Origin: a virus
Taxonomy: Duplodnaviria > Caudoviricetes
Length of the DNA: 45,005 nt
Strand: one strand, 5' to 3'
IMG/VR virus record: IMGVR_UViG_3300011335_000151
Span: 1 to 45,005 of that record
This document shows, piece after piece, positions 4,226 through 43,838 of this stretch. The notes below the pieces were generated by a model that saw nothing but the letters and a program-made list of their open reading frames with translations, searched no databases and was not told the origin of the DNA. A program made the translations under genes and the position numbers. The first letter of the stretch is position 1, and every line of letters starts with the position of its first letter.

Positions 4226-4416
4226 GAAACGATGTTCTAAAACACATCGCTGATAAAATCCAAGAAGAGATCACGGTCATGAGCGACGACCTCGCTCGTG
4301 GCGGTGCTAAGGATCACGGCGATTACAAATATGCCTGCGGTATCATCCGTGGGTTGATGATGGCAACCAGCGTCCTTGCGGACACTGCACAGCGCTTGGA
4401 GAACGACGATGACTGA
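4222..4416 (+). CDS. Small hypothetical protein
   Basis: ATGA overlap with portal; DYKYACGIIRGL motif resembles small proteins found between portal and GroES in related phages. Confidence 0.8.
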   Translation: MRNDVLKHIADKIQEEITVMSDDLARGGAKDHGDYKYACGIIRGLMMATSVLADTAQRLENDDD

Positions 4417-4819
4417 TCTCGTTGACCTGTCCGGACGTCCCATCCCCAAGGTGGGTGCAGCCCCTGAGCTTGCCTTTGAAGACCGCGCTAAGCAGCTTCC
4501 TGAGCCTTCTGGTTATCGCATCCTGTGCGCTATCCCTGAGATTGAGAAGACGACTGAGGGCGGCATCATCAAAGCCGACGTCACCATCCACCACGAAGAA
4601 ATGCTCGCCACAGTGCTCTATGCCGCAAAGCTCGGTCCGGACTGCTATGCTGACGAGAAACGCTTCCCAAGCGGTCCTTGGTGCAAGGAAGGTGACTTCA
4701 TTCTCGTGCGTCCGCATGCGGGCACGCGCATCGTAATTCATGGCCGTCAATTCCGTATTATCAATGATGATGCGGTTGAAGGCGTCGTGGAAGACCCTCG
4801 CGGGATTTCTCGCGGGTAA
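4409..4819 (+). CDS. groES: Co-chaperonin GroES (cpn10)-like protein
   Basis: P-x-GYRIL, mobile loop EKTTEGGII, KLGPDCY, KEGDFIL, FRIINDDAVEGVV match the cpn10 pattern; ATG 4409 preferred to TTG 4376. Confidence 0.9.
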   Translation: MTDLVDLSGRPIPKVGAAPELAFEDRAKQLPEPSGYRILCAIPEIEKTTEGGIIKADVTIHHEEMLATVLYAAKLGPDCYADEKRFPSGPWCKEGDFILVRPHAGTRIVIHGRQFRIINDDAVEGVVEDPRGISRG

Positions 4820-34600: not shown

Positions 34601-37451
34601 CTCCAACATGACCAACGCCGACCCGTCACTGGCTCCGACTGCTGCTGAGTATTTGAAGATTGACCCAGAGTTCCAAGCGCTACGCAAGGAACTTGGGAAC
34701 GAGACTGACGCCAAGAAAAAGAGCGCAATCCAAGGGCAGATTACCAAGCGTCGCGGTGAAATCCAACGGCTGTACTTTGGAGCCACTGACCCGGACGGTA
34801 CTAAAATCTCTGGCTGGAACGACGTGCCTCCGCAGGGCAAGCAGCTTTTCCGTGAAGCGCGAGACTATTACCGTGCCGATTTCCAAGAGCATTATCGCCT
34901 GTTAATCCAGCGGATTGACGACGCCCAGTTTGAAGAGGAGCAAGCAACGCGCCTTAAAGCAGCCGTGGACAAGATGTTCAAGGACGCGTCCGAGCGTGTT
35001 ATCTACTTCCCCTTGAAGCGCTTTGGTGACTACTGGGTCAGCGTCGGTAAGGGCAAATCCGGTGAGTTCCACATGTTCGAGTCCGCTTCCGAGCAGGACG
35101 CGTTCATTAACCAGCTACGCCGCGACGGAGAGTCCCGCGAGATCGACTTCAGCAAGGGTAAGGATACCTTGCGCCTTGGTATACGCAACCAGACAGCCGA
35201 CGCCAGCGCCGCGCTTAAGGGTATTCTCGACCTCATTGATGGGGGCGGGGTCAGCGACGTTGACCTGTTGAAGGACCACATCTTCCAGATGTACCTGTCG
35301 GCGCTACCCGAGGCAGACATGCGTCGGCGCTTTATCCATCGTCAGTTCAAGACTGGCTTCAGCACCGATACGTTGCGGACCTTTGCGTCTACGGCGATAG
35401 CTTCAGCTAATCAGCTTGGGCGTCTGGCGTATAACTATAAGTTCGACAACCTCATCGACCAGTCCTACGCTGAAACTTCGGGTAACCCTTCGAAGCGCCG
35501 CCTCGACACCATCACGAACGAAATTCGGATGCGTATCGAAGACACCATGTCGCCCGAGGCAGAAGGCTTCTGGCAGCAAGCGGCCAACTTCGGGGCTAAG
35601 GCTACCTTCCTCTTCATCCTGTCCAGCCCCAAGTCTGCGATCATGAACCTGACCCAGCTTCACATCGTGGGTCTCCCGACCCTGTCGGCTGAGTTCGGTG
35701 AGAAGGACACCTACGCCATGGCTGCGCGCTACACTGGGCAGATGCTCACTGGTCAGCGTATCGCTAACCCCTTCCGCAACGAAGATGGTGACGTACAACT
35801 CCAAACCCCTAACTTCACGACGGAGGGCAGCGCCTATATCCGTGGCCTGCGCGAGACGGACCCTGACAGGTACGAAGCTATCCAGAAGGCATGGGACTAC
35901 GCCCAACAGCGAGAAGTCACAGAAAGCACCTTCTCCTCTGCGGCGAATGTGTATGAGCGGAGTAACGAGCCATCTGGGGAGTTGAACTTCACACAGGCTG
36001 TGCGTCAGGGTGACGCGACGGCTGCTGTCCAGCGCGCAACTGCAAATGCTGTGAACGCCATGGGTGCGCTCTTCCACCACACTGAGCGCATTGGGCGTGA
36101 GGTCATGTATATGTCAGCCTTCGAGTTGGCGTACGACCGGAACCTCAAGAATGGAATGAAGTCCGATGCGGCTGCGGATGCGGCCATGGAGAAGGCGGCT
36201 GAGCTAACCAACAAGGGGATGTTCGACTTCTCCAACTGGAACAAGTCACGGGCTGCCAAGCACCCTGTGGGTAAGCTGGCGCTCCAAATGCGTTCGTACA
36301 GCATCGCCATGACGTCGCTGCTATTCCGTAGCTTCAGCAATATGGTTGCTCTCCAGCGTACCAAAGCCGAGCGGCTGGCTGCGGCTCGTGTGTTCTTCGG
36401 CGTTGGCGCTATGACGACGCTCTATGGCGGTCTTCGGGCTTCCCAGTTCTACCTGATGGCTATGCTGGGCTTCGGTCTCTATGAGTACGTGAAGTCGGCG
36501 TTTGGCGATGACGAGGAAGAGCAGGAAATCGAGCAGGGTTACCTCAACCCTGAGACCATCGACAAGGAGCTATTCAAGTACGCGGATGAGCAGGGTCGTG
36601 AGTTGACCAAGAAGGACATGGACTATTTCATCCGGACGGTTTGGATTCCTGAAACCCTCGGTGAGGGTGGCACCATGCAGACAGCCCTCGGTCTAAGCGA
36701 TGGAGTGGCCAAGAAGCTGGCTACTGCTTCGGACATGGGTATTCCCGGTATCTTTGGGGTGGACATCTCGAACTCTGTGGCACTCACCAGCCTGTGGCAC
36801 CCTGTCGATACCAAGTCCGACAATCCTGAGGCTGCGTTCTACGAAGGTTTGGGTCGCACCATCCTTGGTCCGTCTGCGTCGATGCCGTCCGCAATTATTA
36901 AGTTTAACGCGGAAGCAAATGCCGGAAACCTCGACAAGGCCATCGAGGCGATTACACCTGCTTTCCTACGTGGTTATGTCAAAGCGGAGCGCCTCAAAGA
37001 CGAGGGGCTTGTGATTGGCAAGGACCGGGATATTGTCCTTAAGGACCCCAGCTTCTACGATACCTACACGTTGGCGATGCAGTCGCTGGGCTTTGCAGAG
37101 GCCGAGACTTCGCGGAACATGCAGCTTGATATTGCAGCGGGTGAGATTGAAAGGTCTATATCGGAAGAACGGACTAAGCTGCTCGACCAGCGGTACCGTG
37201 CCGTGCTCAACACCATAAACAATCCGGGCGAAGAAGCGGAACGTGAACTGGCGAAAGTCGAGCGCGATATGGAAATCTACAGCCTCAACTACCCATCGAA
37301 CGCTATCACCGAAGACGCCAAGAAAAAGTCGTTCAAGGCGAAGAGCGTCGAAGCCGACGAGAAAATGTACGGCATGGGTATGGACGAGAAAATCCCAGTG
37401 CGTGAGCCACTGGCGGAAGAACGGACGGAGCGCTTCTTCGAGGGCCAATAA
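31677..37451 (+). CDS. Giant 1924-aa internal virion / polyvalent-type protein
   Basis: Last late gene; G/A-rich membrane-like segments, GNAT-like insert, YFPLKRFG motif, helical C-terminal region. Confidence 0.75.
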   Translation: MPTYTMKGPDGRVYQLQAGDDVSREKAEAELRRRIGAQLGKQPSATSEPEPKPETPKPVPAPVAAAPLAGTRETAPLKEVKPAGIFDYFTDRQAAIKQDRENRAYLADRMQRAYLKDMETQTGFFDRLGDLFSRGLLSARSGVKDVQAAIEQDPELKKQFTQEARKFAADKGVEIKGATTEEDVKKNFLRNVVPYIIEKGAESLPQMIASFNPLGVVGVALPSNLGGQAREAAELQGRQDVSGTDVAKVAPGALAVTALDTLGLGGILAAPAKTALGRIGKAALLEGGTEAIQSAIEYANPRVVTGSDIDAGEMFEQAAFGALAGGGIGGGLRGVGEAVAAPFRPKAEATDADVTINAAVRQEFGRLVTEEVNAAMAADPALSRDQAVNAVMERAEEISAQATDNIAKRAEAEVAAEGEADVVPDVNTGMDVAGGVGAGVAPDLGTTPPVPSDTDLGETVGGGLEQPVSGVSVPDVSAGAGVSPLTVPPAPVFDITPIMEAPTLKERTSAAKQIASEIVATTPELQGLPPATYGSAVNQMARSAARGEQFDPVDVVYNVAGIERPAPATVEETATVEAPPAVRTVNDMAGLGSVNPDNTNEVLVGGGGLQLTPLADNILKVDSLRAVETGGGRKAMEQLTEVADANGTELQLSPEPFAAEAGKEMTPTELSEWYRGFGFQEQPDGTMVRPAPTAAPSTITPAAAATPQEILADLDSFAISEAQDRDFDQDAFLEGVDDIRSGREPMAYPDALKTYGSSGKFEINDPNAARASSRVAGAQWAQERVAEAQAAATPAPVEVAPEFTPAEVASQAAPEGGTEPLTDANVDAAVSVKLTKAQIKRLEEAAGIQRMKLNNMQKRIARSRSAEETMSLAGKLMLMSRNPDDSVNILTSLFNSVPPPILQGLLAPLETADVVRLGQRAGMENVTRIDKMMRDEYIPYVNRIMQRASKLAEKWADFASRSPEGANAMSDVMFFSNMTNADPSLAPTAAEYLKIDPEFQALRKELGNETDAKKKSAIQGQITKRRGEIQRLYFGATDPDGTKISGWNDVPPQGKQLFREARDYYRADFQEHYRLLIQRIDDAQFEEEQATRLKAAVDKMFKDASERVIYFPLKRFGDYWVSVGKGKSGEFHMFESASEQDAFINQLRRDGESREIDFSKGKDTLRLGIRNQTADASAALKGILDLIDGGGVSDVDLLKDHIFQMYLSALPEADMRRRFIHRQFKTGFSTDTLRTFASTAIASANQLGRLAYNYKFDNLIDQSYAETSGNPSKRRLDTITNEIRMRIEDTMSPEAEGFWQQAANFGAKATFLFILSSPKSAIMNLTQLHIVGLPTLSAEFGEKDTYAMAARYTGQMLTGQRIANPFRNEDGDVQLQTPNFTTEGSAYIRGLRETDPDRYEAIQKAWDYAQQREVTESTFSSAANVYERSNEPSGELNFTQAVRQGDATAAVQRATANAVNAMGALFHHTERIGREVMYMSAFELAYDRNLKNGMKSDAAADAAMEKAAELTNKGMFDFSNWNKSRAAKHPVGKLALQMRSYSIAMTSLLFRSFSNMVALQRTKAERLAAARVFFGVGAMTTLYGGLRASQFYLMAMLGFGLYEYVKSAFGDDEEEQEIEQGYLNPETIDKELFKYADEQGRELTKKDMDYFIRTVWIPETLGEGGTMQTALGLSDGVAKKLATASDMGIPGIFGVDISNSVALTSLWHPVDTKSDNPEAAFYEGLGRTILGPSASMPSAIIKFNAEANAGNLDKAIEAITPAFLRGYVKAERLKDEGLVIGKDRDIVLKDPSFYDTYTLAMQSLGFAEAETSRNMQLDIAAGEIERSISEERTKLLDQRYRAVLNTINNPGEEAERELAKVERDMEIYSLNYPSNAITEDAKKKSFKAKSVEADEKMYGMGMDEKIPVREPLAEERTERFFEGQ
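32938..33132 (+). CDS. Overprinted 64-aa gene in the +1 frame of the giant gene
   Basis: AAGGAG 6 nt before ATG; helical protein-like sequence; host frame is a low-complexity linker enriched in GGA codons. Confidence 0.55.
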   Translation: MSYPMLIPEWMSPEELEQALLLISEPHRPYPVIQTLERLSEEDWSSLFLAYQFLMLARERESVH

Positions 37452-37484
37452 AAAGACCCCCGGCTGAGTGAGCAACCGGGGGTC
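37447..37484 (-). terminator. Rho-independent terminator, - strand (hairpin may also act on +)
   Basis: - strand GACCCCCGGTTG-CTCACT-CAGCCGGGGGTC then TTTTT; lies between convergent operons. Confidence 0.88.
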
Positions 37485-37526
37485 GGGGAGTGATGCGTTT
37501 CATCAACGGGAAGGAGCAAACTTCCG
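37447..37526 (-). ncRNA. Candidate anti-RBS small RNA
   Basis: Three hairpins; segments complementary to the RBS regions at 42164-42175, 43822-43832 and 40566-40574; candidate promoter directly upstream. Confidence 0.5.
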
Positions 37527-37531
37527 AGGCC

Positions 37532-37560
37532 CTCATACCTACTTTCGCCAGATGCGTAAA
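37532..37560 (-). promoter_or_regulatory. Candidate sigma70 promoter for the sRNA
   Basis: TTTACG-N17-TATGAG on the - strand; predicted start ~37526 is at the base of the first hairpin. Confidence 0.35.
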
Positions 37561-37733
37561 CCCCTAATCCCATTTTCGATAGAGGGCTTGACCAATACCT
37601 TGATGCGTAAGCGTTTGAGGACCACCATTAGTTGTGTTTTGGCGCGCACTTGGTCGAGGCAGGGGAAGAACATGGAAGCCCCCTTCCGAAATGCGCGCCA
37701 GTTAATTTCGTAGGTTACACCCTCAATCTGCAT
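37539..37733 (-). CDS. Small basic hypothetical protein
   Basis: GGAG RBS; overlaps primase end; GASMFFPC and GLRIWR motifs. Confidence 0.75.
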   Translation of the reverse strand: MQIEGVTYEINWRAFRKGASMFFPCLDQVRAKTQLMVVLKRLRIKVLVKPSIENGIRGLRIWRK

Positions 37734-40563
37734 CGCCTGATGTGTCTTCCTTGGCGTACTCGTCTACCTTGATGAAATCATCGTCGAGCTTGAACCATAG
37801 GCAGTGCACGTTACCACCCGAGACCGCCATCCCCTTGGACAACCGCTTACCTGCGCGGGACACCAGACGCCCTTGCTTCTCCAGCTTGTTGAGCGTGTCG
37901 TTGTAGTTAATCTGGTACTTGACGCAGTATTCCTTGAACGGCTTGGCGATGAAGAACATCATCTTGGTGTCCGGCTCGATGCGGATTAGCAACTCACCCT
38001 TTGGTTCGCGCTTCGGCAGGGCTTGCATATTGGTGCGCAGGTCCGCCATGTCATCGACGACGAGGATGTTCTGCACGTGGCGATAGAGGTAGTCGTTGAT
38101 GACTTGCTCCACGCCGTTCAATGGCGCTGCTGTGTCCACGCGAAGCCGGTCAATCAAACCACAGGCCCACATATAGATGCGGTCCATATCCCAGTCGATT
38201 AACCCACACTGCTTGGCGACCATGCCGCCTACGATATTAGCTGCAAGCGTAGCTGACCAGAAACGCTCCTTGGGTAGAAGCTGAAGTTCGCGGTCAATCT
38301 TCTCCTGCATTTGGAGGCACTTGTTAACCACATATTCCATGTTCGCCAGCACGTAGCGGATATAGATAGGTCCGGCGTGACCGTAGTTGGCGAAGAGCAC
38401 CTTATCGAACAGGTTCTTACCATGCGCAGTGCTGACGGTATCTACCAGCCCAATGGGGTACTCGATGAGGCGCATAAGTTCGCCTTCTGGATTGTCCTTC
38501 AAAATCGACAGCTTCTCGACGAACGATGAGTTTGACGTCGAAACCGTGATGTTCTGCCACGTGGTGTTGTTCTCGCGCAGTTCGTTGGACCCTGCCAGCA
38601 TGCGCTCCTTCCCCTTGCCGTTGGACAGCGAGTATAGGAAGTCCGAGTATTCCTTCGGCGTGGCGTTGGTAAGCTCGTCCATGGTGGCGGGGATGTTGTT
38701 CAAGACCCCAACCCATTGAAGCTTGCCGTTCATGGTGTCGATTTCCTTGAGGCGCAGTTCCTTGGGGTGCCCATAGACGCTGTTCACCATGTTAAGGATG
38801 GTGGTCTTACCCGTACCGGAGAGCGAGTTGAACAGGTTGATGACCGCCCCCGTCTGGTCGAGGAACTTGAGCAGCGGAGAGCCGAACGCGCTGAGCGCAG
38901 CGAAAGCCTGTGCTTCCATGCCTTCTACGCCGTAAAGGCTCCAAACTTCTTTCCAGTTTTCCAATGACCCGACTGGGCCGACGAACTTGGCCAGCTTGCT
39001 TGTGGCCTTGGAGGGAGGAGAATAGATGTTGCCGTCAATGGTGATCTCTTGGTCGCCCAAAACGAAACGGCTGTTGCCGTCTACCCAGCCAAATTGTTGT
39101 CTCATAATCTCTGCCTTATTTCTGTGTTGGAGTTCTTCGACCGACTTCATGACATAATCCATGAGCACATCGAACTTCTTGCCATAACTAACCACACCCC
39201 GTGCGGAGAGCGCTTTGCGAAGCTCGTCCTTCTGGGTGACCTTGTACATCGGGATGGAAAATTCACGTAGCGGGTCGCGTGGTAGGTGTAAGCGAAACAG
39301 CGCGGAGTCGCCCTCACCCGGGTCGTGCATCCGCTTCACCACATATAGGTCGTTGGAATAAACCATGATGGGGTCAGTTTCTTCTGCGTCCTTGGGTGGC
39401 TTGCGCCAGATACCCCCACCTTCGCCCCGATAGAACGGGAAAGGATATTTGGGGATTTCGATTTCTTCGACCACACCGGGCGCTGTCTCGACCGTGACCG
39501 AATCCTCAACGGACTCTTTGACGATTTTACCCAGTTCCTTGGGGCCAAGGATTTTATCGAGGTGCGGACACCCCACGCACAGGTCAGGGTTGACGCTCTT
39601 GAACTTGGCGCAGCTTGTCGCCTTCCGGATGGTGGCTACCTTCTTGTCGATGGTCTCTGGGTCGTAGTCCGGATGGCCCTTCGACATCATGTGCACTGCT
39701 GTATCAGCATCTCCGCACATAGCAGCCACGGACAGCGCGTAGAACCACTCGTAGTAGCCAACGGTGGCTTGGTTCTTATAGGCATGCAGAAGCTGGTTGC
39801 ATCCGTCACCTTTAGCAGTGCGGACCATTATGCGTTTGAAGTTATAATCCACGCCGTTCATCAACGCCTGTTGGCGCGGCGACATCTCAAAGTTGTCGTC
39901 GAAGATTGTAGCTTGCTTCTTAACCCCAAAGGCAGTCCGCATGGCCTCGATGGTGGTCGTCTCACCCACATGGATAAACTCGACTGGGCGCGGCTCTTCC
40001 TGCTTGAAGTTAAACGTGCCCGGGATGCGCAAGATGCGCGCCACTTCGAACACCTTGTCATCGACGTAGAAGTTCTGGGCGCGGCAAACCGCCTTGAAGC
40101 GTTCGGCCACTGGCTCCCAGTCACGACGGGATACTTCTTCCTCAAGCGGCCAATAGGCATGTATGCCTCCGCCTGAGCTTACGAGGGTGGGAGTAGAAAG
40201 ACCAACCGTCTTGCAGAAGCCACGCAGCGCCTTGAGCGCCGCCTTCTGGTCAATATATCCATCAGGGCGTTTAGTGTTAGGGTCAATCTCGGCCTTGGTC
40301 GGGCCGCAATCTATATCGAGCCAAAAGGCTTTCAATCCCTTCACGTTTTCCTTCGTGCGGTTGTCGCCAGTTGCGTACTTGGCGACCCCGAAGAACACGT
40401 TCCACCCAGCGTTGACGTAGCGCTCAACCAGAGCGTCTACTTCTTCCCGCGTAGCCACAAGTTCCTGACGGACGTCAGCGTTCTTCCCACTCCCTTTAAT
40501 ACTCGTAATTGCGAACCAACCATCGGCTGGCTGCACGAGGTCTAGGAGATCGGGTTGTTGCAT
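37723..40563 (-). CDS. Primase-helicase (RepB/AEP-like primase + DUF927 + P-loop)
   Basis: WLDID, SSGGGIHAYW, RILRIPGT primase motifs; C-x9-C-x2-C; FGW; SGTGKTT Walker A; MDE Walker B. Start could be 40563 or 40578. Confidence 0.85.
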   Translation of the reverse strand: MQQPDLLDLVQPADGWFAITSIKGSGKNADVRQELVATREEVDALVERYVNAGWNVFFGVAKYATGDNRTKENVKGLKAFWLDIDCGPTKAEIDPNTKRPDGYIDQKAALKALRGFCKTVGLSTPTLVSSGGGIHAYWPLEEEVSRRDWEPVAERFKAVCRAQNFYVDDKVFEVARILRIPGTFNFKQEEPRPVEFIHVGETTTIEAMRTAFGVKKQATIFDDNFEMSPRQQALMNGVDYNFKRIMVRTAKGDGCNQLLHAYKNQATVGYYEWFYALSVAAMCGDADTAVHMMSKGHPDYDPETIDKKVATIRKATSCAKFKSVNPDLCVGCPHLDKILGPKELGKIVKESVEDSVTVETAPGVVEEIEIPKYPFPFYRGEGGGIWRKPPKDAEETDPIMVYSNDLYVVKRMHDPGEGDSALFRLHLPRDPLREFSIPMYKVTQKDELRKALSARGVVSYGKKFDVLMDYVMKSVEELQHRNKAEIMRQQFGWVDGNSRFVLGDQEITIDGNIYSPPSKATSKLAKFVGPVGSLENWKEVWSLYGVEGMEAQAFAALSAFGSPLLKFLDQTGAVINLFNSLSGTGKTTILNMVNSVYGHPKELRLKEIDTMNGKLQWVGVLNNIPATMDELTNATPKEYSDFLYSLSNGKGKERMLAGSNELRENNTTWQNITVSTSNSSFVEKLSILKDNPEGELMRLIEYPIGLVDTVSTAHGKNLFDKVLFANYGHAGPIYIRYVLANMEYVVNKCLQMQEKIDRELQLLPKERFWSATLAANIVGGMVAKQCGLIDWDMDRIYMWACGLIDRLRVDTAAPLNGVEQVINDYLYRHVQNILVVDDMADLRTNMQALPKREPKGELLIRIEPDTKMMFFIAKPFKEYCVKYQINYNDTLNKLEKQGRLVSRAGKRLSKGMAVSGGNVHCLWFKLDDDFIKVDEYAKEDTSGDAD

Positions 40564-40619
40564 TACATCACTCACCATTGCGGGGAAACCCCGCTCATTA
40601 TTTTGCTCTTTAAGAAACC

Positions 40620-42162: not shown

Positions 42163-42180
42163 GGTTTGCTCCTTCATTTG

Positions 42181-43820: not shown

Positions 43821-43838
43821 CAGTTTGCTCCTAGGTGT

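Follow-up and report, generated by a model that had tools for sequence, protein, structure and literature searches.

C4 of phages P1 and P7 and, alongside it, the CI RNA of P4 are the systems near the element examined here, a predicted 76-nt small RNA (sRNA) on the minus strand between two convergent operons of the IMG/VR virus record IMGVR_UViG_3300011335_000151 (Caudoviricetes; the whole 45,005-bp stretch is called the window below). ColE1 RNA I and R1 CopA are cis-encoded RNAs fully complementary to one target; like them, the element would be a constitutive RNA that tracks template number and inhibits replication functions through loop-first pairing, but unlike them it is trans-encoded, with 8–12-nt seeds and many targets. 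C4 itself, as far as the accessible sections of the published accounts describe it, is a ~77-nt RNase P-processed RNA whose loops a′ and b′ pair with the phage's own mRNA, b′ partly occluding a ribosome-binding site (RBS), and whose specificity shifts through paired changes in RNA and target (PMC5320573, PMC8198154). A loop complementary to an RBS, with a specificity moving with the target, was also found in the element. According to the same partial sources, RNase P releases C4 from the operon that C4 controls, and the RNA adopts a three-stem fold, acts on one target operon (icd-ant) and belongs to lysogeny. In contrast, the element has a predicted promoter and terminator of its own and 10–12 dispersed targets with one common leader, and no lysogeny genes were found. 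The Rfam model of C4 gave no gathering-level hit in the window and was not among eight weak hits at E values up to 10; the predicted folds were separate hairpins ending in a terminator, not three stems closed by a P1 stem; and the targets were the Gam-like, SNF2, primase, MoxR-type ATPase, DUF2201, Holliday-junction resolvase and other early genes rather than icd-ant or an antirepressor.

The cuckoo/RSs0680/ar14 sRNAs of Alphaproteobacteria likewise show a pyrimidine-rich anti-Shine-Dalgarno (anti-SD) sequence on a short hairpin; in the available part of the source they are chromosomal, with 2–4 repeated hairpins and a fixed CCUCCUCCC loop (PMC4615179). Unlike them, the element has a single seed hairpin, with a UUUGCUC loop and an extension matched by a phage-specific leader; adjacent CCUCCUCCC-loop hairpins were not found and there was no Rfam hit. 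Development is also tuned by the base-pairing phage RNAs sar (P22), OOP and aQ (lambda), 24B_1, PreS and VpdS, but these target a single phage gene or host genes, or depend on Hfq (VpdS), and the accessible portion of the source names none that acts via a class-wide common leader (PMC12197685). The element works like P1 C4 or the anti-SD sRNAs and is a member of neither group. It has the features of a trans-encoded sRNA, namely its own promoter and intrinsic terminator, as judged by sequence conservation only, and a short conserved seed that covaries with several start regions. No description of it was found in the literature searched, mostly without subscription papers. The available portions of PMC5737381 and PMC10690425 contain no description of it, and seven supplement files of the latter (10,006 phage RNA candidates) lacked the seed, files 1 and 2, which lay outside the search, possibly holding the motif.

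Complementarity to early ribosome-binding sites

The window holds a structural arm on the plus strand and the beginning of a minus-strand arm; complete relatives are 61–65 kb long, and the window therefore lacks most of the early arm. The predicted RNA and its sites within the window are as follows.

37450..37525 (minus): predicted small RNA of 76 nt, beginning at the first G of hairpin 1 and running to the U tract, placed by promoter-like spacing and by relatives
37509..37525 (minus): hairpin 1, GGAAG-UUUGCUC-CUUCC, which displays GUUUGCUCC
37521–37510 (minus): seed GUUUGCUCCUUC in hairpin 1, complementary to the RBS common to early genes
37486..37507 (minus): variable linker with a second guide, CAUCACUC, at 37495–37488, complementary to the primase start region
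42164..42175 (minus): target GAAGGAGCAAAC, the RBS of a Gam-like gene of 134 amino acids (ATG 42162); 12/12 complement
43822..43832 (minus): target AGGAGCAAACT, the RBS of the SNF2 helicase gene (GTG 43820); 11-nt complement
40554..40576 (minus): target region with the Shine-Dalgarno (SD) sequence and ATG (40563) of the DUF927 primase-helicase gene; predicted interaction

The original prediction described an anti-RBS sRNA with three such targets, and all its coordinates were correct on re-checking. GTTTGCTCCTTC is, as claimed, a 12/12 complement of 42175–42164, and no other minus-strand match of the gap region to the window is as long; the 11-nt complement in the SNF2 RBS (43832–43822) was also borne out and ties with two unrelated 11-mers in the window. 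Both complements proposed for the primase, 8 nt (GAGTGATG) and 7 nt (TGAGTGA), were located as well, and its start at 40563 is backed by relatives. A shuffled control indicated complementarity beyond chance: when 20,000 dinucleotide-shuffled versions of the gap were set against the eight minus-strand start regions, a 12-nt complement arose in 18 of them and complements of 11 plus 10 nt in 5. With opening energies charged, the predicted net interaction was −11.7 kcal/mol for the primase, −9.1 for 42162 and −7.6 for SNF2, placing them at ranks 1, 2 and joint 3 among 42 start regions. The Gam-like assignment came from Pfam PF07352 (29.7 bits against a cut-off of 28.3). At least 8 nt complementary to hairpin 1 were present at the Gam-like site in 82 of 85 relatives and at the SNF2 site in 38 of 68.

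Across five near-complete genomes (G001–G005), GGAGCA occupied 60 of 112 early-arm GGAG-type sites compared with 2 of 82 late ones, a count that is based on simple gene calls in related genomes. Counted by motif, as are all per-genome numbers that follow, GGAGCAA sites amounted to 10–12 early and 0–1 late in each of these genomes, and GGAGCAAAC was present in 2–8 early-strand copies and exactly one reversed copy, the one in the hairpin. The marked genes include those for a MoxR-type ATPase, a DUF2201 protein, a Holliday-junction resolvase and DUF6378. The idea of a multi-target anti-RBS sRNA acting on the phage's own replication genes was supported by covariation, with the target set comprising 10–12 early-arm genes and not three.

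Relatives with a different seed carried a different mark. G006, with seed GUUAGCUCC, has GGAGCTAA at 5 early and 0 late sites and a single GGAGCAA; G008 and G014, with seed GUUACCUC, have GAGGTAA at 6 early and 0 late sites and at 7 and 2, respectively; and L303, with seed CCUUGGUUG, has CAACCAAGG at 3 early and 0 late sites. These swapped motifs had 0–2 copies in G001–G005. Three further relatives (G007, G009 and L302) had too little early arm or none of the tested motifs. Such switching of seed and sites as a whole class is the strongest evidence that the RNA would act by base pairing. Some relatives also have a second matching segment: GTTGACTCC in G008 and G014 (L261, L262) matches GGAGTCAA sites at 1–2 early genes, and GATACTCC in G006 matches the leader of its ATPase gene.

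Covariation was measured over distinct loci by taking the longest stretch of perfect complementarity that an RNA has to a start region of its own genome and comparing it with that to the same region of other genomes. Cognate complements were longer than non-cognate ones for the Gam-like gene (9.89 vs 8.98 nt, n=92), SNF2 (8.41 vs 7.87 nt, n=66) and the primase (6.08 vs 5.33 nt, n=84), each with 0/5000 permutations, and five control genes in the same test had no cognate excess. When the loci were thinned to one per clade at 62% primase identity, covariation held at 15 clades for hairpin 1 with the Gam-like site (median p 0.006) and for the linker with the primase (4.94 vs 4.03 nt, median p 0.004). 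Loop/RBS covariation in relatives, on which the original prediction had staked itself, was therefore found for both pairs. Loop GUUAGCUCC occurs together with RBS GGAGCTAAC (L181, L182), (G/A)UCGCUCC with GGAGCGA (L186, L193, L196, L199, L201) and GUUUUGCUCC with GGAGCAAAAC (L231, L238). The linker forms perfect complements of 14–17 nt over the primase AUG in L004, L006, L023 and L067, and different 10–11-mers complement the primase start in L009, L015 and L046. The terminator loop had been proposed as a further guide to the primase; the 7-nt match exists, but its excess disappeared once the loci were thinned (median p 0.077 at 34 clades and 0.277 at 15), and this loop is probably no guide.

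Two features of the target genes were seen in passing. The GGAGCAAAC site is missing at SNF2 starts that directly adjoin the stop codon of the gene upstream (L015, L017, L021, L034, L039, L049 and others), which suggests that translational coupling replaces it. A GC hairpin, GCGGGG-TTT-CCCCGC, lies directly 5′ of the primase SD at 40594–40580 (minus) and has similar counterparts in many relatives; in the window GAGCAAA and an ATG (40598) stand before it, and it may gate primase translation.

Fold, promoter-like sequence and conservation

The remaining parts of the element and the gene preceding it are listed below.

37450..37484 (minus): intrinsic terminator with U tract, overlapping the stop codon of the convergent gene for 1924 amino acids
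37532..37537 (minus): predicted −10 TATGAG, without T at −7; conserved TA at a spacer of 16–18
37555..37560 (minus): predicted −35 TTTACG, within the last codons (Gly-Leu-Arg) of the 64-amino-acid gene
37539..37733 (minus): 64-amino-acid gene without known family; the promoter sits in its 3′ end

The gap between the convergent operons spans 87 bp (37452–37538). Its minimum free energy fold (−36.6 kcal/mol, z −2.1; 6 of 200 shuffles equally good) contains hairpin 1 at 37525–37509, a middle hairpin at 37505–37491 and a terminator at 37484–37455 with a U tract, and a separate terminator prediction called the terminator too. The proposed succession of three hairpins ending in a terminator thus agrees with the fold of the window, but its middle member is variable: the linker hairpin at 37505–37491 is weak and unconserved, and it was rejected as conserved structure, since 41 of 71 relatives have three hairpins but their stems differ. 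The expected length of ~80 nt corresponds to 76 nt here (37525–37450, minus) and to a median of 70 nt in relatives. Half of the seed lies in the stem of hairpin 1. The Rfam check proposed earlier yielded no family match for the element; nothing in the window reached gathering level, and the eight weak matches (E up to 10; best NsiR1, 20.8 bits vs 39) were dismissed as noise. On the plus strand (37449–37484) a U tract is absent after the terminator, and late plus-strand transcripts may read through it, antisense to the sRNA, as a possible off-switch.

An exact scan for the 17-nt hairpin found at least 119 loci. Of 127 motif-bearing sequences, 95 have the hairpin after a homologue of the 64-amino-acid gene, with primases 43–100% identical; of the 32 without such a homologue in the DNA examined, most stand in an unrelated sequence context and were dropped. 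Loci were also gathered by protein similarity to avoid motif-based selection, using the best 80 of 595 and the best 80 of 474 matches in two of the searches, and among the 80 distinct loci so obtained 31 have the exact 17-mer and 68 have GCUCC in a hairpin. Conservation of the element spans primase identities from 44% to 96%, which counted in its favour. Of 118 distinct sequences, 108 have a single seed hairpin whose loop is UUUGCUC or a variant of it, and 116 have a terminator-like structure. Stem variants altered on both sides (GAGAG/CUCUC, GACAG/CUGUC, GCAAG/CUUGC) were found, and in 17 hand-picked hairpins with 7-nt loops 98.8% of cells pair, with double changes in 3 of 5 pairs. In two relatives (L147, L156) the element is longer, with an additional 5′ hairpin bearing a second anti-SD-like loop, and in L069/L160 the terminator loop holds a second GTTTGCTCC copy.

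The TTTACG-N17-TATGAG promoter of the original prediction was located at 37560–37532, and its signature is conserved in relatives. Among 66 distinct motif-selected upstream sequences the −35 element is TTTACG in 57 and TTGCG(T/C) in 9; TA at a spacer of 16–18 occurs in all 66, in non-coding DNA, and hairpin 1 starts 6–7 nt past the −10 hexamer in 61. The −35 sequence forces the Leu codon within it to be TTA, as it is in 57 of the 66; in the primase genes TTA accounts for 4% of the Leu codons. The pattern is also present in 46 of 54 members of the protein-selected set, where the TA never belongs to a stop codon. We infer from this conservation that the sRNA would be transcribed as a discrete RNA. 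A consensus promoter scan of the window did not list TTTACG-N17-TATGAG, which the missing T at −7 likely explains; this T is found in only 11 of the 66 motif-selected sequences and 18 of the 46 protein-selected ones. As stated in the accessible text of one study, alphaproteobacterial σ70 promoters mostly lack the −7 T (PMC8407463), a weak hint that the host may be alphaproteobacterial.

Proposed mechanism and competing explanations

Taken together, these data make it most likely that the element is real and conserved and would represent a trans-acting phage sRNA with a class-wide target set, and a base-pairing mode of action is very probable on the sequence evidence. What was observed directly is the complementarity, its confinement to the early arm, the covariation and the conservation of promoter-like, stem and terminator sequences. 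In the mechanism that we propose, the host σ70 polymerase would make the separately promoted ~76-nt RNA; its hairpin 1 loop, complementary to the extended RBS AGGAGCAAAC common to ~12 early-arm genes, would pair first and then invade the 3′ stem strand, covering the SD, and the linker would act as a second guide over the primase AUG. Ribosomes would be kept from loading on the whole class of early and replication genes but not on late genes, translational repression being the usual outcome of SD occlusion. The RNA level would climb with time and genome copy number, making the RNA a negative-feedback brake. That this brake ends the early phase of lytic infection is probable, though with much less assurance than the pairing, its timing and the sign of its effect being deduced.

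Several observations weigh against this interpretation. The −35 lies in conserved codons. Only ~3 clean independent seed swaps were placed on the tree (FastTree), and the SNF2 signal was weaker at 12 clades (median p 0.089). The loop is unchanged in L032 despite RBS GGAGCTAAC, and it is changed in L150, L152, L153, L246 and L253 with no matching change at the Gam-like site; G015 has three GGAGCAA against two GGAGCGA despite its seed UCGCUCC, and the G010 seed lies outside a hairpin, with only two early GGAGCAA sites. The hairpin is absent in 12 of the 80 protein-selected relatives. Only 16 of 83 relatives reach 8 nt or more in the primase pairing, and no primase match accompanies the window-type linker kept by L025, L029 and L068. 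The net energies (−7.6 to −11.7 kcal/mol) are modest because half of the seed is in the stem, and a late gene, 19790, ties with SNF2 at −7.6 kcal/mol. In the same three loci, L025, L029 and L068, the window-type linker and terminator stand beside a 48%-identical primase that lacks the complement; these loci may be mosaic, or the linker may have another target.

The same RNA and pairing might instead confer immunity, silencing the early arm in a carrier or pseudolysogenic state or blocking a superinfecting relative, with the seed types as immunity groups. A host-type promoter could work without phage proteins, replication genes are among the targets, and the seed swaps resemble the specificity of P1/P7 C4, in which, in the accessible part of the account, a 4-nt difference limits cross-reactivity (PMC5320573). 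However, a search of five genomes rated complete for a tyrosine integrase, ParA and a resolvase found none in any of them, in agreement with the original description of a phage without a visible integrase. The seven GTDB matches are all contigs of at most 64 kb in bins of mixed, unrelated lineages, the 58 metagenome contigs considered are all 63,644 bp or shorter, and neither set contained a host-flanked contig. One seed predominates over 44–100% primase identity, unlike diversifying immunity groups. We therefore consider immunity unlikely, though the most credible of the rivals; the carrier-state role suggested earlier found no support, and the lytic brake is preferred because of the missing genes and host flanks. 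Considerably less probable is a reading in which the element lacks a promoter of its own and forms the 3′ end of the mRNA of the early operon, active in the full transcript or once processed from it. The element does follow the last early gene immediately and on the same strand, with a common terminator, the consensus scan did not call its promoter, and the −35 bases double as codons; nevertheless, the fixation of a rare TTA codon, the invariant TA in non-coding DNA and the constant distance to the hairpin speak for a promoter.

A protein might also recognize GGAGCAAAC, as an mRNA regulator or at a DNA operator, with the copy in the gap serving as a decoy on late read-through RNA of the plus strand or as a further DNA site. 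The Watson–Crick hairpin forms on either strand, the plus strand is free of a U tract at this point, so that late RNA may run through, and the operon contains a helix-turn-helix gene. This explanation appears slightly more doubtful still, given that the promoter and the U-tailed terminator both indicate the minus strand, that an unrelated second segment tracks the primase start, with up to 17 nt over the AUG, and that each of five genomes has exactly one reverse copy; a wholesale change to GAGGTAA or CAACCAAGG poses little difficulty for base pairing but much for a protein. Least plausible of all is a generic anti-SD or chance match without specific targets. The original caveat that the match is partly generic was sound insofar as CUCCUU is complementary to AAGGAG wherever this occurs, which includes late genes, but the extension past the SD is limited to the early arm, covaries with the loop and is rare in shuffles, which largely refutes this reading.

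Genome setting and biological meaning

The plus-strand arm of the window encodes terminase, portal, head and tail-fibre proteins and a DarB-like protein of 1924 amino acids. The minus-strand arm encodes a PD-(D/E)XK nuclease, the SNF2 helicase, the Gam-like protein (42162), the helix-turn-helix protein, the DUF927 primase-helicase and the 64-amino-acid protein. A GroES-like co-chaperonin gene (4376–4819, plus) adjoins the portal gene and has the same annotation in HTVC023P and MinM2. In one relative (G003, L286:4606-4995) an early gene encodes a homologue of the RNA polymerase alpha C-terminal domain (PF03118, 53 bits). An estimated 1300 or so IMG/VR stretches contain matches to the primase patterns. 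The nearest cultured phages (023Pt_psg01, HTVC027P, DSL-LC04, HTVC023P and MinM2) have terminase identities of 50–57%, and a search of cultured phages gave no match to the 64-amino-acid gene; in Rollin and RHph_TM3_14A no hairpin was seen when the region after the primase was inspected by eye. The cultured MinM2 (L325), which has a MoxR-DUF3150-VWA module, has its own early leader, GCAACGGAG, common to four genes; no antisense copy of it was found other than at start regions.

Early-gene shut-off in phages is usually ascribed to transcription factors, nucleases and repressor proteins. On balance, and with reservations, we favour a joint reading in which early genes would be addressed by a tag built into their RBS and one sRNA would read this tag and shut off the early class in translation, giving an RNA-only early-to-late or copy-number-sensing switch, and in which tag and RNA would have been rewritten jointly across 5–7 genes, more than once, to yield natural orthogonal RNA/RBS sets. 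The small size of the system (RNA 76 nt, sites 9–12 nt) makes it testable without the host, and at least three natural seed/RBS sets, predicted to be orthogonal, are a possible source of compact translational switches. If true, one phage RNA with a regulon of 10–12 of the phage's own genes would give a widespread family of uncultured phages a translational switch that acts on a whole gene class, and with it a layer of phage timing not found described in the literature searched.

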